A DNA stretch of 64,000 bases from Candidatus Micrarchaeia archaeon (GTDB lineage Archaea > Micrarchaeota > Micrarchaeia > Anstonellales > Anstonellaceae). How positions within the stretch are numbered: the stretch's first letter is position 1; the number at the start of each line of letters is the position of its first letter. The stretch lies in NCBI GenBank assembly GCA_041659465.1, contig JBAZYD010000007.1, forward strand, positions 5,670-69,669, in the 5' to 3' direction. Below the pieces are notes generated by a model. It was not told where the DNA came from and made no database searches. It was given only the letters and a program-made list of their open reading frames with translations. The position numbers and the translations under genes are program-made. Of the stretch, positions 13,239-50,844 are shown one piece after another.

Positions 13239-14366
13239 TTATCCTTCGACCTTGGCAACCCTGTCACTGCCAAAGGTAATATTCCTTCCTGTCATGGCGC
13301 GCATTACATCGGCGTTTGTCAAAAGATGCGGGGAAAACGCCGGCGTGGAAAACTCCGTTTTCCCCTCCGCGAGCACGGCGTGGATGAGGAGCTGGTCAGC
13401 CAAATGCGAGTCAACCGAGCAGCCCGGCTGCAAAATTGCGCCCTGCCGCGCGCCATCGCCCGCCTGCATCCCGCGCATGAGCTCCGCGCATGCCTCCTGT
13501 GCCACTTTTTCCGCGGGCTTTCCCCTTTCGCCAAGCGCAGATGCGCCGAATGCGCCGCTCCAAACCGTGAGTGCGTTGCCTGCGCATGATGCTTCCACTG
13601 CGCGTGCGCCGCCTGTTGCGCCGGGGAAGAGTTTTTTCACTTCCGCCTCCTCGCGCTGCAGGACGTGCGGGGGAAGCGAGGAGGCGAGGATGGAATACTT
13701 CACCTGCTGCGCCTCGGGCAGGAATTTGCAGCCGCGAAGCTTTGATGGCTCAGCCTTCAGCGAAACGATGCCGCCGCCTTTGGGGTAAAAGCCCGCGCGC
13801 TGCATCTTTGCCTCTGCGCGCACGCCGAACTTGCGGGCAGCAGGCAAAAACACCTCGGAAAAATACTCAAACGATGGCGAGTGCGACACGTGCGTGCCGC
13901 CAATTACCTCAAGGGAGCTCGGGTGCGCTGCGTGCGCAAGCACGGGAAGCGCCGCCTGAAGGAGAAGGGTGCATGAGCCTGCCGTTCCGATGTCGAATTT
14001 GTAGTCCCCGCCGGAAATTTTCCCAGGCAAGAATGTCAGCTCCGTGGAGCCAAGCGTTGCACCATGCATGCGCGCGCCGCAAATTTCGGATAGAAGATTG
14101 CACACCGTAAGATGCTGCGCGGCAAGGCCGGGCTTTGGCCTGCCTGCGCGGATGTTTGTGATGCGCACGGGCGCCTGGAGCACGCAGGAAAGGGAAAGCG
14201 CGGTGCGCAGCACCTGGCCGCCGCCCTCGCCCTGCGAGCCGTCAACTACTCGGGCCTGAAGGCCCGTATGCGCAGCCCAAGCGCCTTCAGCCTCGGCGCG
14301 CCCGGCTTCCGCCGCTCTGCCCGATGAGGGCGGGCGCGCCCGAGTAGTTGAGTCTATTTCAAGCAT
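13239..14366 (-). CDS. rtcA: RNA 3'-terminal phosphate cyclase
   Basis: DGSQGEGGGQVLRTALSLS...ITNIRAGRPKPGL..., GGTHVSHSPSFEY, VDSHLADQLL. Start taken at MLEIDS (ATG 14366); a GTG just before VVDGSQGEGGG is an alternative. Confidence 0.85.
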   Translation of the reverse strand: MLEIDSTTRARPPSSGRAAEAGRAEAEGAWAAHTGLQARVVDGSQGEGGGQVLRTALSLSCVLQAPVRITNIRAGRPKPGLAAQHLTVCNLLSEICGARMHGATLGSTELTFLPGKISGGDYKFDIGTAGSCTLLLQAALPVLAHAAHPSSLEVIGGTHVSHSPSFEYFSEVFLPAARKFGVRAEAKMQRAGFYPKGGGIVSLKAEPSKLRGCKFLPEAQQVKYSILASSLPPHVLQREEAEVKKLFPGATGGARAVEASCAGNALTVWSGAFGASALGERGKPAEKVAQEACAELMRGMQAGDGARQGAILQPGCSVDSHLADQLLIHAVLAEGKTEFSTPAFSPHLLTNADVMRAMTGRNITFGSDRVAKVEG

Positions 14367-14430
14367 GGAAAATGTAGAGGGGAGAAGGAATAAAACGCCC
14401 ACAGCCCGTCCGCGCGCGCAAACTGCAGCA

Positions 14431-15723
14431 TCATAGCCACGCCAGGCGGCGCGCAAGCGCCGCGGCGCCAATGGCAAACGGGAGGGCGAATGCAGCCGCG
14501 ACAATCGAGAAGTCCGGGAACGCCCCCTGCTGCTGCCGCGACGGGTAGGCCGCCGCAGCCACCCCGTCGCTTGCCTGCCTTTTTGCCATTGCGCCAATGC
14601 TGCCGCCTGGTGCGCCAGGCGATGAGAAAGGCGCTGGCTCGCGCACGGAAAATTCGCGCGGGAATTCCTGCTTGCGGGAGAATGCGTCCTCGATGATGAT
14701 TGTGAAGTTCGCCTTGCCTGCTGAGGCGTGCCAGGGGAATTCCAGGTAGAACGGCACATAGGACGCGTTTTTGTCCACAAGCTGATATGGGAAAATTGGC
14801 GCGCCTGCGTTGATGAAAACGCCTGATGCGGCTTGGGGCGGCGGTGAAAATTCCCTGCCCGCGATAGCCTCCCCGCACGGGCCCGTGCCTGCAGAAAACA
14901 AATAGGGCTGCACTGATGCGATTTCCCTGCCGTTGGAAACAAGGGAGATGCTTGCAGGCAGGCGGCGGGCAAACAGCGCCACCCTGCCGGTCCCATTCCC
15001 GCTCAGGCGCGAGGAAAGGGGAGGGTTCAGCCAAAGGACTGAGTCCGGCCCCACTTCCACGGAAAAATTGCGCGCGTCGGAAACGGTGCGATGGAATGCG
15101 CGGATGCCCTGGCTGTAATCAACCTCGCAGCCGCACCCAGTATATCCACCCATGCTGGTGCAGCGGTAGGAGTAGCCGCTTTTTGCAAATGAATAGGAAA
15201 CCGAGATGGTGGCTGAGAGGGAGAGGGAAAGGGGGGCAAAAGGCTGCAGGAAGTCCGCGCCGGCCAGCTTTGCAGAGGATAGGTTCAGGGGCGCGGGGTT
15301 TGGCCCCGAGGAAGAAAGCAAGAGCGCGGTTGTCGAGTTCCCATACCGGTAGGAAAGCTCGCCTGACAGCGATGGGGAGGAGGGCGCAAAATAGCGGATT
15401 TCCCCGGCTGGGCAGCGCATATCGTCCCTGATGGAAAAACGCGCGCTTGGCGGGAAAGATGCCGACCATGACCAGATGGCGGAGGCGTTTTGCAGGTCGG
15501 TTGTCGCATTGCTAACCTGCGGGACAAGGGAGACGATGCGGGCATCCGCCACGGAAAAGATGTCGCCTGCGGAAGGCAGCCGCTCTGGCGCGCCGCATGC
15601 GTTTGCGGCGCCAAGCAGGGAAGGGGCAAGCGCGATGTTTTGGGAGGATGCCTGCCCGACAGCAGCGGCTGCGAAGATGGGCGCGCAGAGCAGGAGCAGT
15701 GAAAAGTAAAGGGCGTTTCCCAT
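14431..15723 (-). CDS. Secreted protein with a C-terminal hydrophobic anchor, hypothetical
   Basis: MGNALYFSLLLLCAPIFAAAA is signal-like. Many N-x-S/T sequons. C-terminus is PDFSIVAAAFALPFAIGAAALARRLAWL. Starts 7 nt after the upstream stop. Confidence 0.6.
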   Translation of the reverse strand: MGNALYFSLLLLCAPIFAAAAVGQASSQNIALAPSLLGAANACGAPERLPSAGDIFSVADARIVSLVPQVSNATTDLQNASAIWSWSASFPPSARFSIRDDMRCPAGEIRYFAPSSPSLSGELSYRYGNSTTALLLSSSGPNPAPLNLSSAKLAGADFLQPFAPLSLSLSATISVSYSFAKSGYSYRCTSMGGYTGCGCEVDYSQGIRAFHRTVSDARNFSVEVGPDSVLWLNPPLSSRLSGNGTGRVALFARRLPASISLVSNGREIASVQPYLFSAGTGPCGEAIAGREFSPPPQAASGVFINAGAPIFPYQLVDKNASYVPFYLEFPWHASAGKANFTIIIEDAFSRKQEFPREFSVREPAPFSSPGAPGGSIGAMAKRQASDGVAAAAYPSRQQQGAFPDFSIVAAAFALPFAIGAAALARRLAWL

Positions 15724-20405: not shown

Positions 20406-20450
20406 TGGCGCATTTGCGCCATTCTTTTTCTTTTCTTCTTTTATTTTTTG
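20406..20450 (+). terminator. Hairpin plus T-tract downstream of dnaG
   Basis: ggcgcatttgcgcc hairpin followed by ttctttttcttttcttcttttatttttt. Confidence 0.5.
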
Positions 20451-20471
20451 GGCTAATGTGAATAAGATGAA

Positions 20472-20563
20472 TGGGCCCACGAGGATGGAGCGCGAAGCGC
20501 GACAGATTTTGCGCGCAGCGCAAAACGTGGGCACACGAGCAGCAGCGAGTGGGCCCACGAGGA
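20472..20563. repeat. 14-nt exact direct repeat tgggcccacgagga (20472-20485 and 20550-20563)
   Basis: The second copy is the 3' acceptor strand plus T-stem of tRNA-Val. The first copy lies 64 nt beyond the tRNA 3' end. The spacer contains the perfect hairpin TTTTGCGC-TGC-GCGCAAAA. Confidence 0.8.
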
Positions 20564-20693
20564 ATCGAACCCCGAGTCTTCTGCACGTCAAGCAGACGTC
20601 TTACCATTGTCGAACCCATTTGCACTTTTCCGTTGACGCTTTTGCGAGCGTGCCCATCTGGAGCGAGCAAAAGGGTCATTCGACTATAGGCCC
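20550..20693 (-). tRNA. tRNA-Val (anticodon GAC) with an about 70-72-nt intron in the D-loop (about 20605-20677)
   Basis: Exon 1 is GGGCCTA-TA-GTCG-AAT(G). Exon 2 is (AT)GGTAAGAC-G-TCTGC-TTGACGT-GCAGA-AGACT-CGGGG-TTCGATT-CCTCG-TGGGCCC-A. BHB-like: TCGA/TCGA 4-bp helix flanked by 3-nt bulges ATG and CAA, then an ACCC/GGGT helix. Confidence 0.8.
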
Positions 20694-20751
20694 CTGTAAA
20701 ACTGTTTTCTGCTGCCTAAGCTTTAAGAAGGTTCAGGGAGCAAGGGGGAAT

Positions 20752-22352: not shown

Positions 22353-23186
22353 TCAGAAGAAAGTGCCCACTTTTTTCCTCATGTTCACTGCAAAGTGCCT
22401 GCCGAGGCCCGACTTGAAAAGGAGTATCTCGCCTTTTGCGCCAAGCACTTCGCCTATTATCGTGTGCGTCTCGTCCGCGCGGGGCACTCGCGGGTAGCGG
22501 GAGGCGAATTCCTGTATGTCCGGCGTGAAATCCGGTACCGCGCCCGAGTGCTGCACGAGCTCGACATGCGCCGTGAAGTTGTCGCGCGCAAAGCCGTGGT
22601 CGAACTCAAGGCGCCTCATTTTCTGCGAAAGCCTCACCGAGTTCGAGAAATTGAAGCGCGACTGGACGGATGATTCAGCCGCATAGATTTTGTCAGGCCC
22701 GGCAAATTGCGCGATGATGCAGCCGAAGTCCGCGCCCTGCTCCAGCATCCTGTGCAGGAAGCGCTCCTTCCTCGTCACCCCGCATTTGACGATGTCGTCT
22801 CCGAAACCTGCCAGGTAAAGCGCGTATTCCTCCTTTTTCGCCTCCTCGTAAAGCAAAGGGTAGCCCGAGAAATCGCCTTTCGTGTATGCACGGGACATGT
22901 CAAGCGCGCTGCATGTGGGGCATTGGCGCGTGTGTATCGCGCTGTTTTTGCATTCGTGGTAGCCGTCGGGCGCCCTGTAGCCTATGCAGGAGAGCCTTTC
23001 GGTGAAGTTGATGTCCTGGCTGCCCTCAAGCTCCAGCGTGCCGATTGCCCCATCCTGCCGGAACAGCAGGGTGGGCTTTGCCTCGCCCGAATAGAAACGC
23101 AGCAGGTGCCTTTGCATAAGGCAGTAAGCCGCGCAAACTGCTTTTAAGCGTTTCCCAAGCTTGGTGCCGGTGCACTTCCAGTGCAC
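22353..23186 (-). CDS. Hypothetical protein with a Cys/His cluster
   Basis: 277-aa ORF containing CIGYRAPDGYHECKN...CPTCS and YALYLAGFGDDIVKCGVTRKERFLHR. No confident family. The start may be an internal Met. Confidence 0.5.
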   Translation of the reverse strand: MHWKCTGTKLGKRLKAVCAAYCLMQRHLLRFYSGEAKPTLLFRQDGAIGTLELEGSQDINFTERLSCIGYRAPDGYHECKNSAIHTRQCPTCSALDMSRAYTKGDFSGYPLLYEEAKKEEYALYLAGFGDDIVKCGVTRKERFLHRMLEQGADFGCIIAQFAGPDKIYAAESSVQSRFNFSNSVRLSQKMRRLEFDHGFARDNFTAHVELVQHSGAVPDFTPDIQEFASRYPRVPRADETHTIIGEVLGAKGEILLFKSGLGRHFAVNMRKKVGTFF

Positions 23187-23230
23187 TGCACGCCAAATTC
23201 ATTGGAATTTGGCTGTGCCGGTGGCAGGGA

Positions 23231-25296: not shown

Positions 25297-26064
25297 ATGG
25301 CTGCAACCACCAGGCAGGAAAAGGAAAGGATTTCAGCCGAGGCGCAGAGGCACATCGACGCCGAGCAGGGAAAGGGCAAAGGCGCGCTCCTGTCTGACGT
25401 GATACTGGGCGGGCAGGACGGGCTTGTCAATGTGCTTGGCATTGTGCTTGGCGTGGCATCGGCAACGAATGACAGGTTCATTGTCCTTATCGCAGGGCTC
25501 GTTGCCACTTTTGCGGAATCCGTTTCCATGGCTGCGGTTGCCTATGCCTCGGTGCGCGCAGACGAAGACCACTACAACCGCGAGCTTGCGAACGAAAGGT
25601 GGGAAATGAAGCATTTGCCAGAGGTGGAACGCGAGGAGATACGCCTCATCTACATGAAAAAGGGCTACCGCGGGAAAAAGCTCGAGCAGATGGTGGACAA
25701 CACCTGCTCCAACGACGAGATGTGGCTGCACATGATGATGACTGATGAGCTGGGGCTCACCCCGCCAGAGGCGGCAGCCCCGCTTCGCGCTGCGACCATA
25801 GTGGGCGTTTCCGCGCTTGTGGGCTCGTTTGTGCCCCTTATCCCTTTTGTTTTCCTATCCGTGTCGGACGCGCTCATTCCTTCCCTCATCCTTTCCACGC
25901 TCGTGCTTTTCGGCGTTGGGGTGTACAAAGCGCGCATAACTGTGGGCAGCTGGTGGAAGTCAGGCATTGAGATGGCGGCTGTCGGCATGATTGCCGCGCT
26001 TGTGGGCTATTTTGTAGGGAAAGTGCTTGGCGACTGGTTCGGCTTGAAAAATCTCCCGGCCTGA
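25297..26064 (+). CDS. VIT1/CCC1-family iron/manganese transporter
   Basis: GGQDGLVNVLGIVLGVASAT plus C-terminal TM helices, typical of the VIT family. Confidence 0.8.
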   Translation: MAATTRQEKERISAEAQRHIDAEQGKGKGALLSDVILGGQDGLVNVLGIVLGVASATNDRFIVLIAGLVATFAESVSMAAVAYASVRADEDHYNRELANERWEMKHLPEVEREEIRLIYMKKGYRGKKLEQMVDNTCSNDEMWLHMMMTDELGLTPPEAAAPLRAATIVGVSALVGSFVPLIPFVFLSVSDALIPSLILSTLVLFGVGVYKARITVGSWWKSGIEMAAVGMIAALVGYFVGKVLGDWFGLKNLPA

Positions 26065-26140
26065 GATTTTTCAGGATTTGAATGAGGGCGGGCCCGAATT
26101 CAGATAAGATGAAGAATGTGCCAGCCTAGATAAAACGAAA

Positions 26141-26489: not shown

Positions 26490-28136
26490 CTAATTTCTCT
26501 TCTTGTCCAGCTGCGCAAGCTTCTTGTCGATTTTCTTCTCGGATTCCAGCCTTTCAAGCGCGTAAGAAGAATAATCCACGAACTTCATTCCCGATGCAAG
26601 GAGAGGGTGCGTTTCCTTGAGAAGCTTGTGCATGTCCTGCGCCACGCGCCTGTAGTCGATGTGCCCCTGGCGCATGGAGCGCAGCTCGCAGAAGTGGTAT
26701 GCCTCGCGCAGGTTCATCTTCATGTACCAGCGCATGCGGAAGCCAAGCGGAACGACGTACTGCGCTTCATAGGGCATTTCCTTTTCCATCTCGCGGAAAA
26801 GCGCGTCTGCAGGCGCAAGAGCGTCCTGGATTTGCCTGCCAAAGCCCGCATCAAGAAGCTCTTGCGGCATGTCAAATCCGTGGCGTGTGGTGAGAAGCTG
26901 GCGCTCCTGCGTGAGTATCCTGTGCCTGTGCAGGTCGCGGTACATGCCGAAGTTCCCTGTGACGCAGAAAGTATAGAAGGCGTTCTCGAACGCCCTGCCT
27001 GGCTTTTGCCTCCTGTTTGCGCGATTGCCGATGTAGGCGCGGATGATTTCCTCGCGCTCTGCTTGCGGCAGGCGCTTGGCGATTGATTGCGCTTCTTTGT
27101 ATGAGCAGTGGAGCTGAGGGAAGATTATGGCTGCGAGAACCTTGTCCTCGGCGTCCGAGTCAAAGTCGACAAGTGTGGTGTGCGAAACGTCATCCTTTGC
27201 CTCGCTTGCATGCTTTGCGGCGATTGCCGCTATTCTGTTGCGGTTTTCCATCATGTAGCCCTGCATTTCCTTGCCGTATTTGTCGTTTGCGCGTTTCACG
27301 AACGACGGGATGACTTTTGAGAGCTCGGACTGCGCCTGAGGCGCGATTGCGCGCGTTTCAGAGAGGGGGGAAGAGTACATTTTTGCAAGCAGGTACTCAA
27401 ACGCCCTGCCGTTGCCGTAAAAGCCGGCGTTTGTGAGCGTTGCTGCGGGGAGTATGCCGCGCAGCAAATCGCACACCTTTGCGCGTATGGTGGATGCATA
27501 TGCCCTCTCGCTCACGTCGGAGGCGCGCGGGTTTTTTTCCTCTTCTATTTTTGTGAGCTTTGGGATGAGGGATGCATAAGTGTCAAACAGGAGGTCCGAG
27601 GCTGCGATGTACTTTTCTGCAAAGCGGGAGGACATTATCTTCTCTTCGCGCAAGTACCTGTACTTGCCGTCCTCTTTCTGGTCAAAGTACACATAGCGGG
27701 TGGACTTTTCCAAAGGCGAGATGCCAATCCTCGCGTCCTGCATGAATTTTGTCGCCAGATTGGAGATGTTCTCCGCAGCCAGGTGCGCGCCGCCCAATTC
27801 AGCCACGGAATCGTCGCCGTAGCCGACAAGCACCCTGTCATAGAAGTCCTCGGCTTTCTTGGTGGCGACGATTTGCGACTCGCCGCGGTTTTTCATCTCG
27901 CCCACAATGGCATCAAAGCCGGATTCAGGGTTCAGTATGAATTCGTCCAAAAGCACGCGGCGAAGCGATTTGCTTGAGCGAGAGTAGCGTGAGAAAAGCG
28001 CGCCCTTGACCGCCTCGGGAAGGTTCATGAGGCAGAAGACGTCGGACGTGGTGCTGGTGCAGAACTGCGAGAGTATGCCCTGTTCGCTTGGAGTAAAAGT
28101 TTCCACGCACCCACCGCTTGAAAGATGACGTACCAT
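26490..28136 (-). CDS. thyX: FAD-dependent thymidylate synthase ThyX, long form
   Basis: YRDLHRHRILTQERQ (a variant of the ThyX RHR motif), plus a second ThyX-like N-terminal half (FSRYSRS). Confidence 0.7.
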   Translation of the reverse strand: MVRHLSSGGCVETFTPSEQGILSQFCTSTTSDVFCLMNLPEAVKGALFSRYSRSSKSLRRVLLDEFILNPESGFDAIVGEMKNRGESQIVATKKAEDFYDRVLVGYGDDSVAELGGAHLAAENISNLATKFMQDARIGISPLEKSTRYVYFDQKEDGKYRYLREEKIMSSRFAEKYIAASDLLFDTYASLIPKLTKIEEEKNPRASDVSERAYASTIRAKVCDLLRGILPAATLTNAGFYGNGRAFEYLLAKMYSSPLSETRAIAPQAQSELSKVIPSFVKRANDKYGKEMQGYMMENRNRIAAIAAKHASEAKDDVSHTTLVDFDSDAEDKVLAAIIFPQLHCSYKEAQSIAKRLPQAEREEIIRAYIGNRANRRQKPGRAFENAFYTFCVTGNFGMYRDLHRHRILTQERQLLTTRHGFDMPQELLDAGFGRQIQDALAPADALFREMEKEMPYEAQYVVPLGFRMRWYMKMNLREAYHFCELRSMRQGHIDYRRVAQDMHKLLKETHPLLASGMKFVDYSSYALERLESEKKIDKKLAQLDKKRN

Positions 28137-28197: not shown

Positions 28198-28422
28198 ATG
28201 ACAGAGAAAAGGCCGTTTGACATATTGAATGCAGCGCTCAACAACAACGTGGTCGTGGGGCTGAAAGGAGGGCGGGACATCCGCGGGCTCATGGTCTCAT
28301 ACGACGTGCACATGAACATCGTGCTTGAGAAGGCGGAAGAGCTTGCCAATGGCGAGGTGAAGCGCGGGATAGGGACAGTGCTCCTGCGCGGCGACTCGGT
28401 TGTGTACATTTCGCCTGCTTAG
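28198..28422 (+). CDS. Sm-like protein (archaeal LSm/SmAP)
   Basis: PFDILNAALNNNVVVGLKGGRDIRGLMVSYDVHMNIVLEKAEE...GTVLLRGDSVVYIS contains the Sm1 and Sm2 motifs. Confidence 0.9.
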   Translation: MTEKRPFDILNAALNNNVVVGLKGGRDIRGLMVSYDVHMNIVLEKAEELANGEVKRGIGTVLLRGDSVVYISPA

Positions 28423-28438
28423 TTTGTTTTTTTTTTCC
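28423..28438 (+). terminator. T-tract after the Sm gene
   Basis: tttgtttttttttttcc immediately after the stop. Confidence 0.4.
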
Positions 28439-28443
28439 AATCG

Positions 28444-28547
28444 GTGTCGTGCTTGCGCACGACATCTACCGAAAACCTGCGGGTTTTCGCTATCAGTGCC
28501 GTGCTCGTGCACGGCATCTGGCAAAAATCCTCTGGGATTTTTACCAT
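28444..28547 (+). repeat. Two tandem 52-nt units, each with two 8-bp hairpins, ending at tRNA-Ala position +1
   Basis: Unit 1 (28444-28495): TGTCGTGC-ttgc-GCACGACA, atct, CGAAAACC-tgcg-GGTTTTCG. Unit 2 (28496-28547): TGCCGTGC-tcgt-GCACGGCA, atct, AAAAATCC-tctg-GGATTTTT. Four base pairs differ between the units and all four changes are compensatory. Confidence 0.75.
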
Positions 28548-28658
28548 GGGCTTGTGGCGCAACGGTAGCGCGCCTGCATGGCATGCAGGAGGCTGGGGGT
28601 TCGAAAGCTTTCGTCGGCGAAAATTTGCCGGCTATCGCCGTCAATCCCCCCGAGTCCA
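28548..28658 (+). tRNA. tRNA-Ala (anticodon GGC) with an about 39-nt intron in the T-loop (about 28606-28644)
   Basis: GGGCTTG/CGAGTCC acceptor with G3:U70, GCGC-AACGGTA-GCGC, CCTGC-ATGGCAT-GCAGG, GGGGG-TTCGAA[intron]T-CCCCC, discriminator A. T-tract follows. Confidence 0.85.
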
Positions 28659-28733
28659 TTTTTTCTTTTCAACCTCTACTTCCGGGAAGGCGCGCAAAGG
28701 CAGGCTTTTAACCCTTAACTGGAAAATCGCCAC

Positions 28734-28934
28734 ATGGCATCGGACAAGATGAGGGCGCTTGTAAGCTTCGCCAAGGTGCTAGTGGCGCTCGGCGTGGGCT
28801 ATGCGATTGCGTACGTGTGGAACGACACGCGCGGCGCAATCGACGACATCTGGGTCCCTTACGCCGCAGGCCTGGTCTCGGCGGTCATGGTCTTTGTGCT
28901 GCTTTCCAGGCTCAACAAGGGAAGCGGCGACTGA
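28734..28934 (+). CDS. Possible small 2-TM protein
   Basis: 66-aa ORF with two hydrophobic helices. Its stop codon overlaps the predicted 5' end of RNase P RNA. Could be spurious. Confidence 0.3.
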   Translation: MASDKMRALVSFAKVLVALGVGYAIAYVWNDTRGAIDDIWVPYAAGLVSAVMVFVLLSRLNKGSGD

Positions 28935-29242
28935 GGGCAGGCAGAAGGGGAAGCTTTTTAATCAGGCTCAACAGGAACGTTAGCGGGAGCGGCGGAAGGA
29001 CGGCCAACCAAGGCGCGAGACGCGCCGACGGAGGAAGCTCTGCCCACCGCAAGAGTCCTATCCCCTTAAGGGGGAATCGGGAACAGAAACGAAACTTTTC
29101 CGCGCGGATGAGGATGACGAAAGGAGACGCGCGAGAATTGGTGAAACGGCCCGTGTATGGATGCCATGCGCGGTGCAAGGCCTTTGTGCCGCTTAGTCCA
29201 ATGCCGTCTGAAACAGAAGGCAGGCTACTACCTGCCGCTCCC
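28933..29242 (+). ncRNA. rnpB: RNase P RNA (archaeal type A-like)
   Basis: P4 strands GGAGGAAGCUCUGCCC and AACAGAAGGCAGGCUA, GGUGAAACGGCCCGUG element, terminal P1 pairing GAGGGCAGG / CCUGCCGCUC. The overlapping ORFs are Arg/Gly-rich junk. Confidence 0.8.
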
Positions 29243-46757: not shown

Positions 46758-46927
46758 ATCCTCGCACCATAAAATGCTTGTGAATGGGGAGGTTTAAAAG
46801 GTGTATTTGCCTCTAATTCGCGGGAGAAAATATGGATATATTTCACATAGGTTTGCCCAGGACGTTCCTTGGGGTGAAAAATTCCGACAGGAATTTTTCA
46901 GAAGTGGAGCCCAGAGGCTCCACTAAG

Positions 46928-47755
46928 ATGCCGAATGACGAAAAAAGCGCGAGATACGTCGTGCTTTCCTCGCCCTACGAGGGAACGGTGTCATACGGCA
47001 CCGGCACAAAGAAAGGCCCTGCGGCGATAATAGAGGCATCGCGCCAGATCGAAACGTACGACATCGAGCTTGCGCGCGATTTTGCCGAATGCGGAATCTA
47101 CACCGCAGACGAGCTGGAAGTGAGCCATTCCTCGCCTGAGAAGAACTGCGGATACGTGCAGGAAGCTGTGAGCGCGGTGCTGGCTGAGGGAAAAGTGCCT
47201 GTATTGCTTGGCGGGGAACACTCAGTCTCTGTTGGCGCTTTCAATGCCATTGCCGCAAGGAAAGGCGCGGAAAACGTGTCGGTGCTTCATTTGGATGCGC
47301 ACGCGGACATGCGCCAGGAATACGAGGGAACTGCTTGCAACCATGCCTGCGCAATGAGAAGGTGCCGCGAGAAGCTGCATGCTGTTTCCGTCGGAGTGCG
47401 TAGCTATTCCGCGGAAGAGGCTGAGGAAATAAAGAAGAAAAAATGCGACATTTTCGGCGTGGAGTTTGACGAGGCGGCTGTGGTGAAGAAGCTCCGAAAG
47501 GATGTTTACATTACAATTGACCTGGATGCATTTGACCCGTCCGAATGCCCGGGCGTGGGAACGCCAGAGCCTGGCGGCATGAGGTGGAAGCAGGCACTTT
47601 CGCTTTTGAAGAAAGTGTGCGAGACGCGGCGCGTGGTTGGGTTTGACGTGGTGGAGCTTGCGCCTGTGCCAGGGCAGATTGTGTCTGACTTCCTGGCGGC
47701 AAGGCTGGTTTACAAGTTGATTTGTTACATCGAGGCGAGCAGGAAAGGGCAGTGA
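46928..47755 (+). CDS. speB: Agmatinase (arginase/ureohydrolase family)
   Basis: LGGEHSVS, LHLDAHADM, ITIDLDAFDPSECPGVGTPEPGG, DVVELAP (Mn ligand motifs). Confidence 0.85.
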   Translation: MPNDEKSARYVVLSSPYEGTVSYGTGTKKGPAAIIEASRQIETYDIELARDFAECGIYTADELEVSHSSPEKNCGYVQEAVSAVLAEGKVPVLLGGEHSVSVGAFNAIAARKGAENVSVLHLDAHADMRQEYEGTACNHACAMRRCREKLHAVSVGVRSYSAEEAEEIKKKKCDIFGVEFDEAAVVKKLRKDVYITIDLDAFDPSECPGVGTPEPGGMRWKQALSLLKKVCETRRVVGFDVVELAPVPGQIVSDFLAARLVYKLICYIEASRKGQ

Positions 47756-49041: not shown

Positions 49042-49050
49042 GTGCTTTTG

Positions 49051-50844
49051 ATGAAATTTGATACCAAGGAAATTATCGCAATCCTGATTGTTTTTCTCCT
49101 GCCGCTGGGCTTGGGGCAGTTCGTGGCAAAGTCCACGCTTCCGGAATATGGCACGGCGGTGGCGATGATGCAGGCCGCATCGGGCGCAGCAGGCGGCGCG
49201 CCTTTGCATATTGCAGTGGCAGCTTCGCTTGAGAAAGCTTATGCGCCGCTCCTGGGAATGCCAGCCGCATCCGCACCTGCGATTGCCGGCTTCCTGCTCA
49301 TTTTCCCCCCGCTGCTCCTTGCATTAAGCTCGGTGCTGCTTTACCTTGCCTGCAGGCAGATGGCGTACAAGAAGACGCAGTCTGTGTTTGCAGTGGCGCT
49401 CTTTGCCCTTTGCGCAACAGTGGCGCTTCCCAACATGCCAGGCGTTTACGGGAGCGCACAGCTTGCCATGTTCCTTTTTGCCGCGTTTGCCGTGCCGTTT
49501 GCAGCGTTTGTCCATAAGCCTGGCAGGATGGAAATGCTTGGCGCAGCGGCGCTGACTGGCTTTTCCGCAGGCTATGTGAATGCTGCGTTTGCGCTTGCCG
49601 GCGTGGCGATGGTTGCGGCGTTTGCCTTTGCCCACCATGGCAAATTTCGCAGAAATTTGGCAGCGGTTGAGGGCGAAGCCCACAACACCGCTAAGAAAAG
49701 GGAGGAGAAGAACTATTTGGCGCTACTTGGCGCCCTCGCGCTCGTTTTCGCAGCGGCGGGCTTTTTGTCGCCGGACAAAACCCTGCTCGCTTTCTCCGCA
49801 GGCAGCCTGTCGCAGGTTGCCAGCGGCATGCCGTTCCTTTTTGCAGGGGCGGCAGTCTGCCTCGGGCTTTTCTTCTTCGGCACGCGCGATTCGGAGTATT
49901 TTGCGCTGATATTGCTCGCGCTGGCGCTTTCTGGCTTTTCGCCGCTTGCCGCCGCCATCCTCCTTGCCTTCCCGGTTGCAGAGGGCGCCACCAGGATGAT
50001 GGAGGACATTCCAAAGGGGGCAAAGCTCGCGGCGGTGTTCGCCTGCGCGTTCTTCGTGGTGTTCGGGCTCATGTACGGCGGCCTGGAAATCTACCCTGCG
50101 CTTGGCGCTGCTGCGATGCTTGGCGTGCTTGCGCCGCTCGTGCTCCATTTCTACGACTACAATGCGCGCGCGGTTTTCACGGTCATGGGCGCCTCGCTTT
50201 TGCTTTTCTCGCTTTTCTTCGCAGTGTTCATCCAGATGCCGCCGGCAAAGGCAGGCTACCCCGACTACACCGACCCTGCGCTGGTGCAGGCGCTGTCCTA
50301 CCTTTCGGAAAGCCATGCGCAGAAGCTGTCCACGCTTGAGAGGGTGGATGCGCTGGCGTTCTACCTGCCAGGGGTGTCGCGCACGCCCCCTGCTGATGTT
50401 GAGGGGATGCTGCTTTCCGGCAATGCAAGCGCGGAATCCGGCAGCTACCTCCTGCTTTCATTGCCCTCGCTTCAGGCGCTTTCGCAGAAAGGCGGGTTTG
50501 ACGTCTATTACTATGCGCAGAACTACACCAGCAACGGCGCCACCTATGCGCTCTTTGTCTCGCAGCAGGGAAGGCTGGTTTCGCGCGAGCTTGCAAGCAA
50601 CGGGAAATTCGCCCTCAAGGACGGCGCTGCGCTTGACGGCTACGGAAGGTATTATGCGCCGATTTCGCTTCCGCGCATGGTGATGCTCTCGGATTCAAAG
50701 CCCATAGGCAGCAAGTCGAACAGGATGCTCCTGCTGCCCGACGGCGGCGTGCCCCCGCGCGTGGCAGCCATATATTCGGGCAAGGATTCCGGCCTTGCGC
50801 TTGTGAAGGAAATCGGGGACGTTTCCCTCTACAAGGTGAACTGA
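49051..50844 (+). CDS. Large polytopic membrane protein with a C-terminal soluble domain, possible GT-C-type glycosyltransferase
   Basis: About 13 predicted TM then an about 190-aa soluble tail. First gene of the glycosylation cluster. GTG at 49042 is an alternative start. No WWDYG motif seen. Confidence 0.65.
   Translation: MKFDTKEIIAILIVFLLPLGLGQFVAKSTLPEYGTAVAMMQAASGAAGGAPLHIAVAASLEKAYAPLLGMPAASAPAIAGFLLIFPPLLLALSSVLLYLACRQMAYKKTQSVFAVALFALCATVALPNMPGVYGSAQLAMFLFAAFAVPFAAFVHKPGRMEMLGAAALTGFSAGYVNAAFALAGVAMVAAFAFAHHGKFRRNLAAVEGEAHNTAKKREEKNYLALLGALALVFAAAGFLSPDKTLLAFSAGSLSQVASGMPFLFAGAAVCLGLFFFGTRDSEYFALILLALALSGFSPLAAAILLAFPVAEGATRMMEDIPKGAKLAAVFACAFFVVFGLMYGGLEIYPALGAAAMLGVLAPLVLHFYDYNARAVFTVMGASLLLFSLFFAVFIQMPPAKAGYPDYTDPALVQALSYLSESHAQKLSTLERVDALAFYLPGVSRTPPADVEGMLLSGNASAESGSYLLLSLPSLQALSQKGGFDVYYYAQNYTSNGATYALFVSQQGRLVSRELASNGKFALKDGAALDGYGRYYAPISLPRMVMLSDSKPIGSKSNRMLLLPDGGVPPRVAAIYSGKDSGLALVKEIGDVSLYKVN

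Follow-up and report, generated by a model that had tools for sequence, protein, structure and literature searches.

A hairpin array between an Sm-protein gene and tRNA-Ala in a Micrarchaeota genome as a probable tandem pair of dispersed miniature palindromic elements

The 64 kb of DNA analysed here (the window; about 6% of a ~1-Mb genome) comes from a Candidatus Micrarchaeia archaeon and carries, between a gene for an Sm/LSm protein and a gene for tRNA-Ala, an array of short hairpins. The array occupies positions 28438-28545 and consists of two units of 52-54 nt; it ends 2 nt short of the first nucleotide of the tRNA (+1, position 28548). Each unit has the same layout, in which a GC-rich hairpin of 8 bp (hairpin A) is followed by UCU and then by an A/U-rich hairpin of 8-11 bp (hairpin B). 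The original prediction regarded these units as a structured RNA belonging to this locus, perhaps the leader of pre-tRNA-Ala. Judging from sequence comparisons with relatives, we consider it likely that the array is a tandem pair of copies of a selfish palindromic element, miniature in size (~50-60 nt) and dispersed, that occurs in a clade of Candidatus Micrarchaeota. Two covariance models are referred to below: R1, built from the units of the Sm-to-tRNA-Ala spacers only, and R2, which is broader. The features of the locus are as follows.

26490-28136, - strand: double-length ThyX gene, the first gene of the local order, to the left of the Sm gene.
28198-28422, + strand: Sm/LSm protein gene with a Pfam LSM domain (E = 3.7e-21), preceding the array.
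28423-28436, + strand: T-rich tract TTTGTTTTTTTTTT, leading from the Sm stop codon to the array.
28438-28491, + strand: unit 1, made up of the linker CAATCGG, hairpin A1, TCT, hairpin B1 and CT (R1 74.3 bits, R2 69.2 bits).
28445-52/28457-64: hairpin A1, perfect 8 bp, loop TTGC.
28470-77/28482-89: hairpin B1, perfect 8 bp, loop TGCG.
28492-28547, + strand: unit 2, made up of the linker ATCAG, hairpin A2, TCT, hairpin B2 and a final T (R1 36.4 bits, R2 44 bits).
28497-504/28509-16: hairpin A2, perfect 8 bp, loop TCGT.
28523-30/28535-42: core of hairpin B2, loop TCTG; extended form 28520-30/28535-46 with one C.A mismatch.
28548-28658, + strand: tRNA-Ala(GGC), downstream of the array; it has a G3:U70 pair, and its T-loop is interrupted by an intron of ~39 nt (about 28606-28644); supported by ARAGORN after intron removal, a partial Rfam tRNA match and intron-free orthologues.
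28988-29239, + strand: RNase P RNA (Rfam RF00373, 93.7 bits).

The placement of the array between the Sm gene and tRNA-Ala, abutting +1, stands as originally described. ARAGORN called no tRNA in the raw window, because the intron sits in the T-loop; with the intron cut out, the program called tRNA-Ala(ggc) with its start at 28548, and the partial Rfam match scores 28.4 bits. The 3' arm of B2 (ACCA) and the final T form ACCAT immediately 5' of +1. A small open reading frame (ORF) lies between tRNA-Ala and the RNase P RNA. Orthologues of this tRNA gene either lack introns or have differing combinations of hairpin-rich ones, placed in the anticodon loop, the T-loop or close to the 3' acceptor end.

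Two tandem units of paired, perfect 8-bp hairpins with 4-nt loops were confirmed. A direct repeat (28432-28475 / 28484-28527) has a spacing of 52 nt and an identity of 75%, and the minimum free energy of 28423-28547 is -55.1 kcal/mol as opposed to -29 +/- 3.3 in shuffled sequences (z = -7.9), with none of 200 shuffles being as stable. Throughout the 64-kb window, perfect hairpins of >=8 bp were called 22 times (18 distinct), compared with 5.5 times in mononucleotide shuffles; four such hairpins inside ~100 nt are therefore far above chance. The four compensatory changes that had been counted between the units fared unevenly. A1 and A2 do differ by one exact exchange of U-A to C-G, whereas the three changes in hairpin B depend on an alignment anchored at the loop. 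When B1 and B2 are instead anchored on their outer G-N-C bases, two events remain on both strands, namely one G-C to A-U change and one inserted U-A pair. The distance from B1 to B2 is 53 nt, not 52 nt, and in the light of the relatives B1 and B2 are two distinct B types.

Known sources for these hairpins were also considered. At a permissive threshold, Rfam gave no known RNA family at the array, the sole match (mir-5882) being spurious at 23 bits against a gathering score of 95. Hairpin A might have been derived from the acceptor stem and D-arm on the 5' side of tRNA-Ala, but this origin was rejected, since the local alignment scores did not exceed those of shuffles. B1 together with its linker is 71% identical over 31 nt to the T-loop intron of tRNA-Ala, a relationship that we treat as unproven.

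With the Sm protein as the query, 160 relative loci were gathered, 80 from a genome collection and 80 from metagenome contigs; all 80 of the former belong to Micrarchaeota-type or unclassified archaeal metagenome-assembled genomes. Loci of relatives are numbered from L001 onward; L004 and L161 belong to the assembly GCA_026396415.1. Where the Sm protein is 99-100% identical, identity to the window is 72-88% in the flanking DNA and 88-94% in the Sm coding sequence, and hence these relatives are not near-identical strains. Hairpin A, compared across 11 units, has 98.9% of its cells paired and changes on both sides in 4 of its 8 pairs, while for hairpin B (15 copies) the corresponding values are 95% and 4 of 8. 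In a model-fitted alignment of 15 family members, comprising the 11 spacer units and four copies from agmatinase genes that are described below, 97.1% of cells are paired and 9 of 16 pairs have changed on both sides. In each of the three alignments, 0 of 500 shuffles reached the covariation score. Sliding the 3' partner columns by 1-3 positions reduced pairing in the family alignment to about 40-50%; given this loss and the 97.1% pairing in register, the hairpins are truly constrained. The loops are free to vary among units. The earlier claim that pairing is kept through changes on both strands has thus become much stronger with the relatives included.

Constraint of this kind would be expected of a dedicated structured RNA, whether the 5' leader of pre-tRNA-Ala, the 3' untranslated region of the Sm message or a separate small RNA, with the hairpins selected at the RNA level. 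Its roles could include protecting the Sm message at its 3' end once RNase P has cut, insulating the folding of the tRNA and binding the Sm protein. Besides the strong covariation, the geometry of the spacers agrees with this explanation. The proximal B hairpin ends 2-3 nt before tRNA +1 in every array (ATG/GGGC, but AT/GGGC in L090 and GT/GGGC in L067, with the slash before +1), and unrelated stable hairpins of other lineages (L009, L012, L022, L024, L025, L108, L110 and L111) likewise end 2-5 nt before +1, with z of -5 to -10. The order of Sm followed by tRNA-Ala is kept across much of the phylum, and tRNA-Ala begins 0-1 nt past the Sm stop codon in L020, L021 and L028, which implies co-transcription. 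Moreover, no convincing TATA-like box or promoter separates the array from tRNA-Ala. The content of the orthologous spacers in related Micrarchaeota, which hold 0, 1.5, 2, 2.5 or 3.5 units, is less favourable to an RNA-level function. They are given below with the identity of the Sm protein to that of the window.

No unit, T-rich spacer of 17-28 nt: L002, L003, L082-85, L088, L089 and L091/92 (Sm 99-100% identical).
No unit, spacer occupied by a small ORF: L086 (Sm 99-100% identical).
B-A-B: L001 and L090 (Sm 99-100% identical).
A-B-A-B: this window.
B-A-B-A-B: L004 (Sm 99-100% identical).
B-A-B-A-B-B: L087 (Sm 99-100% identical).
B-A-B-A-B-A-B: L081 (Sm 99-100% identical).
B-A-B-A-B, with the A-B unit in two identical copies: L067 (Sm ~75% identical).

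Many relatives with an identical Sm protein thus have no array. In the arrays that exist, the order of the A and B modules varies between genomes, copy number shifts by whole or half units, and recent local tandem duplications are visible, the linkers between hairpins being TCT(G) and ATCTT/CTCTT/ATCAG. In L087, the last B is duplicated along with the first bases of the tRNA, which indicates that arrays expand by local tandem duplication.

A different kind of hairpin is found in the spacers of L009, L012, L022, L024, L025, L108, L110, L111 and L132. Each has a single long hairpin of the polypyrimidine/polypurine type with 12-18 bp (such as TTTTTCTTTTCTCTTT..AAAGAGAAAAGAAAAA), which ends 2-5 nt before tRNA-Ala +1 (z of -3 to -10) and is unrelated in sequence to the A-B unit.

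The unit is also found away from the spacer. A regular expression for A-type hairpins, run over 806 kb of loci, had matched only in the Sm-to-tRNA spacer and first suggested a locus-specific element; this was overturned by covariance-model matches elsewhere. A covariance-model search of the kind originally proposed, covering the window and its relatives, found further copies beyond the Sm/tRNA-Ala locus, which speaks against a locus-specific reading. The clearest is a match of R1 at 46876-46931 on the - strand (42.5 bits, E = 5e-11), with the linkers CATCTT and TCTGA included. The copies in the window outside the array are listed here.

46877-46930, - strand: agmatinase site 1, where 18 codons (KNSDRNFSEVEPRGSTKM; 54 nt) are inserted in frame close to the 5' end of the gene for agmatinase (46832-47755, + strand; Pfam Arginase); R1 42.5 bits, R2 68.5 bits.
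49639-49692, - strand: membrane-protein copy, a 54-nt in-frame insertion (GKFRRNLAAVEGEAHNTA) in the gene 49042-50844 (+ strand) for a 600-aa protein; R2 18.8 bits.
26047-26112, - strand: probable VIT1 copy, overlapping the 3' end of VIT1 (25297-26064, + strand); R2 18.6 bits, E = 0.002.

The window accordingly holds five units at four loci in 64 kb. On the - strand, agmatinase site 1 reads CATCTT, a GC hairpin (AGTGGAGCC/GGCTCCACT), TCTGA and an AT hairpin (AAAATTCC/GGAATTTT). The peptide KNSDRNFSEVEPRGSTKM stands between FLGV and PNDEK in 4 of 18 aligned agmatinases, all of them close homologues including that of the window, and is absent from all distant ones. The empty allele GGCGTY/CMRAAT (the slash marks the insertion point) is present in L167, L168 and L163, so that the boundaries of the 54 nt are exact at the DNA level. 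Another agmatinase copy, of 60 nt, occurs in L163 and L164 at a different position of the gene (site 2); its orientation and frame match those of site 1. The membrane-protein insertion is found in the window only and is missing from the orthologues of L161, L162 and L163. The VIT1 copy reads, on the + strand, GAAAAATCTC..GAGATTTTTC, AGG, ATTTGAAT..ATTCAGAT and AAGATGA, and the VIT1 stop codon falls in the loop of its AT (B) hairpin.

Further sites were found in relatives. L003, L083, L085, L086 and L090 have a copy of ~52 nt upstream of Sm, inserted between the TATA-like box and the start codon of that gene, at a site that is empty in the window. These copies end in a loop and 3' arm CTTTTAGGAATTTTTC, which takes the place of the original TATTTAATTTTT at an equal distance from the start codon. 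The RNase P RNA genes of L004 (3849-3911) and L081 (about 2195-2257) contain a 61-nt insertion of two hairpins with the layout of the A-B unit and a different sequence: ACATTTTGCC..GGCAAAATGT, CTCAGA, CATCGAGCGG..CCGCTCGATG and CTGAT. It occupies the P9 position, equivalent to about 29075 in the window, whose own RNase P RNA is entirely without a P9 helix. Empty alleles exist at every site that was compared with relatives (the VIT1 site is outside this comparison). The coding copies so compared are 54, 54 and 60 nt long; they share orientation and reading frame with the VIT1 copy, and translation thus constrains the copies in coding sequence. The in-frame insertions add 18-20 residues, with peptides of the form K-N-x..F[SP]EVE..TK. 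Relative to transcription, both orientations occur among the copies, and pairing is kept in either.

Two other hairpin-like features were seen near these genes. The membrane-protein orthologue of L161 (12211-13992; also L162) has a different insertion of 15 residues at another site, QLECAGTQAECIAKS, a palindrome-like peptide that neither the window nor L163 has; this, too, may be a small palindromic insertion. In the window, a GC hairpin (GTGCACT tcc AGTGCAC) lies beside an AT hairpin (GCCAAATTC ATTG GAATTTGGC) at 23170-23213, around the start of a DUF2797 ORF and the adjacent spacer; this pair was not scored as a family member by the covariance models.

A dedicated RNA at the Sm/tRNA-Ala locus is difficult to reconcile with this distribution, and we regard it as improbable. 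The unit occurs at >=5 other kinds of site, among them coding sequence, the region upstream of Sm and the 3' end of VIT1, with an insertion of similar layout in RNase P RNA, and its orientation with respect to transcription is not constant across sites. The free variation of the loops is a further point against it, and the wobble pairs, which show no strand preference (3 G.U versus >=4 C.A cells on the + strand in the hairpin A and B alignments), may be another. The suggestion that the array serves as a binding structure for the neighbouring Sm protein is unsupported for similar reasons, since the unit lies in unrelated contexts in both orientations and is missing where the Sm protein is 100% identical.

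The B hairpins raise the question of whether the array might be a duplicated promoter or terminator module, with each B palindrome serving as TATA box, oligo-T terminator or both, and with the units as repeats of the tRNA-Ala promoter region. In the window, the A-run of the proximal B falls at -26 to -22, close to where TATA boxes are usually found in archaea. The B hairpins also contain T4-T5 tracts, and archaeal transcription terminates at oligo-T. In addition, the replacement of TATTTAATTTTT by CTTTTAGGAATTTTTC upstream of Sm suggests that B hairpins may substitute for promoter sequence. Nevertheless, the TATA role that had been suggested for the second A/U-rich stem does not hold up well: its position in the window is marginal, and in L001 and L004 the A-run, at -23 to -20, is too near +1. 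Family B hairpins also lie inside coding regions, where neither promoter nor terminator is expected; a TATA role leaves the pairing-preserving compensatory changes unexplained; and where the array is lacking, relatives express this tRNA from 16-28 nt of T-rich spacer. We therefore consider a promoter or terminator module very unlikely.

A mobile element would best account for the observations. Its GC-rich hairpin A, the linker UCUG-A/G, the A-run/T-run hairpin B and short semi-conserved ends are read on the opposite strand as B, (C)AGA, A and NNGAT. Dispersal, filled and empty alleles, coding copies in multiples of 3 nt with an open frame, the presence of both orientations and the variable tandem arrays together point to a selfish miniature palindromic repeat. 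Pairing that is constrained in either transcriptional orientation is most simply a property of the DNA of the element. Most likely, copying or moving would require the DNA to form hairpins, as it does for IS200/IS605 and REP/RAYT elements with their hairpin-dependent single-strand transposition; another option is that intrastrand templated repair keeps the palindromes perfect. Copies would survive where the host tolerates them, that is, in open reading frames, at a permissive helix position of RNase P RNA and in untranslated spacers. Since no convincing promoter lies between the array and the tRNA, and the tRNA abuts the Sm stop codon in some lineages, transcription probably includes the array at the end of the Sm message, in the 5' leader of pre-tRNA-Ala or in both, and RNase P would then remove it at 28547/28548. 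Any local effects, such as 3'-end protection or insulation of the tRNA fold, would be secondary.

Several observations weigh against this interpretation. The first concerns the machinery and marks of transposition: no transposase, integrase or reverse transcriptase was found among the 51 ORFs of the window scanned with Pfam (~6% of the ~1-Mb genome), and the copies have no terminal inverted repeats and no clear target-site duplication, the junction ambiguity being 2 nt at most, so that any mechanism of movement is putative. The second concerns the unity of the family. The VIT1 and membrane-protein copies score weakly (about 19 bits), the A hairpins of different sites agree in position, in flanks and in some bases but not in whole sequence, and the case for homology between all the sites depends chiefly on hairpin B, the linkers and the general layout. 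The third is that vertically inherited orthologous copies also keep their pairing, as seen in an A-U to G-C change in the agmatinase copy of L165 and in a U-A to C-G exchange in the Sm-upstream copies of L086 and L003. Pairing that is kept after insertion is hard to explain by selection for mobility alone, and thus an in-place structural constraint may exist.

Alternatively, the element could be related to the bulge-helix-bulge (BHB) introns that are numerous in the tRNA genes of this clade and could move as RNA: the splicing endonuclease and RNA ligase would carry out reverse splicing or ligation, and reverse transcription or recombination would follow. These genomes have many hairpin-rich tRNA-Ala introns (anticodon loop, T-loop and close to the 3' end), hairpins of tRNA-Ala introns and trailers are matched by the AT hairpin CATTTTGCC..GGCAAAATG of the RNase P insertion, and every site found is in transcribed or likely transcribed DNA. 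On such a route, however, the coding copies would be anomalous, as their lengths in multiples of 3 nt and open frame indicate that they are tolerated as translated sequence and are not obligatorily spliced. The element boundaries showed no BHB motif, copies face either way with respect to transcription, and the scanned ORFs of the window include no reverse transcriptase. RNA-level mobility accordingly seems to us a slim prospect.

By analogy, the DNA element may be viewed as a very small archaeal variant of palindromic mobile repeats, whose closest analogues would be the REP/BIME repeats of enterobacteria and the Rickettsia palindromic elements (RPE), although it belongs to neither. It resembles REP/BIME in its two alternating types of short palindrome, its conserved short linkers, its variable tandem clusters in post-gene spacers, its dispersal in the genome and the maintenance of its palindromes by compensatory changes (95-99% of stem cells paired; 9/16 pairs changed on both sides). 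The differences from REP/BIME are as follows: the element is not strictly extragenic, given the in-frame copies in the agmatinase and membrane-protein genes and the insertion of similar layout in an RNA gene; A and B face one direction, whereas the palindromes of REP/BIME alternate in orientation; the hairpins are shorter (20-26 nt) and the host is a DPANN archaeon; no conserved GTAG-like head is evident; and no RAYT (Y1/HUH) transposase was found among the 51 scanned ORFs of the 64-kb window. RPE are selfish palindromes found in frame in unrelated protein genes, to which they contribute a conserved peptide, and also in RNA genes and intergenic DNA (PMC10969869). The present element shares with them in-frame insertion into unrelated protein genes, the addition of similar peptides and the existence of empty alleles in relatives. 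It differs in its size and form, with ~54 nt (50-60) and two separate short hairpins as opposed to about 100-150 bp, in its tandem arrays, which are atypical for RPE, in its archaeal host and in the lack of any sequence relationship.

Other known systems fit less closely. Hairpin-ended derivatives of IS200/IS605 (palindrome-associated transposable elements) are short and non-autonomous, with a hairpin at or near each end. Like these and archaeal MITEs, the element is very short and has a hairpin near each end, without terminal inverted repeats or clear target-site duplication; unlike them, it is far smaller, no target-site rule is evident beyond a suspected preference for sites beside AT or ATGG, and no parent insertion sequence or Y1/HUH transposase was found in the window. 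A classical MITE was rejected, as ends such as CATCTTAGTGG... and ...GGAATTTTT are not mutually inverted and the junction ambiguity is 2 nt at most. Archaeal BHB tRNA introns are similar in being hairpin-rich insertions in tRNA genes (here also RNase P RNA genes) whose presence varies among close relatives, but copies of the element lie outside the mature tRNA or are translated in frame, with no BHB motif identified at their boundaries. A CRISPR array was likewise rejected: both alternating parts are palindromic and variable while the linkers are conserved, and there are no identical repeats with unique non-palindromic spacers.

Some features of the surroundings may be recorded here. The Sm gene, tRNA-Ala and RNase P RNA lie within ~1-2 kb of one another in several Micrarchaeota lineages (window 28198-29239; L002, L086, L020, L028 and L067). 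On the - strand of the window, 20450-20700 contains a tRNA (Rfam 32.5 bits at 20550-20617) with the anticodon loop GAC and an apparent insertion in the D-region. Its 3' end, TCCTCGTGGGCCCA, recurs ~85 nt downstream (start to start), and between the two copies there are hairpins such as TTTTGCGC TGC GCGCAAAA; duplicated tRNA 3' ends of this sort also follow tRNA-Ala in L001, L018 and L019. An ORF of 585 residues at 13239-14996 (- strand) has an RtcA (RNA 3'-terminal phosphate cyclase) domain at residues 256-574, and its N-terminal ~250 residues have no Pfam match.

Our survey of the literature on Micrarchaeota tRNA introns and repeats, and on RPE-like elements in archaea, found no description of the family. 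It is conceivable, though we would not favour it, that the copies represent a previously undescribed class of ultra-short (~54-nt) archaeal mobile element whose hairpins are the substrate of a hairpin-specific enzyme. If this were true, DPANN archaea would have in it a raw material for 18-residue protein insertions, additional RNase P RNA helices and possibly tRNA introns, as well as for new 5' and 3' untranslated structures, including promoter-proximal ones such as those upstream of Sm.

To our knowledge, the element is among the smallest dispersed palindromic repeats described, and it resides in the reduced genome of a DPANN archaeon. It is tolerated in frame in enzymes, in the P9 region of RNase P RNA, in the gap between a promoter and its gene and in expandable arrays before a tRNA. 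For RNA discovery based on structure, it offers a caution, in that textbook-like covariation within a local duplication can stem from a selfish palindromic repeat. The element may help to explain the abundance of hairpin insertions in the structural-RNA genes of Micrarchaeota, and its family would be a tractable system in which to study how archaeal elements move and at what rate they are recruited as parts of proteins or RNAs.

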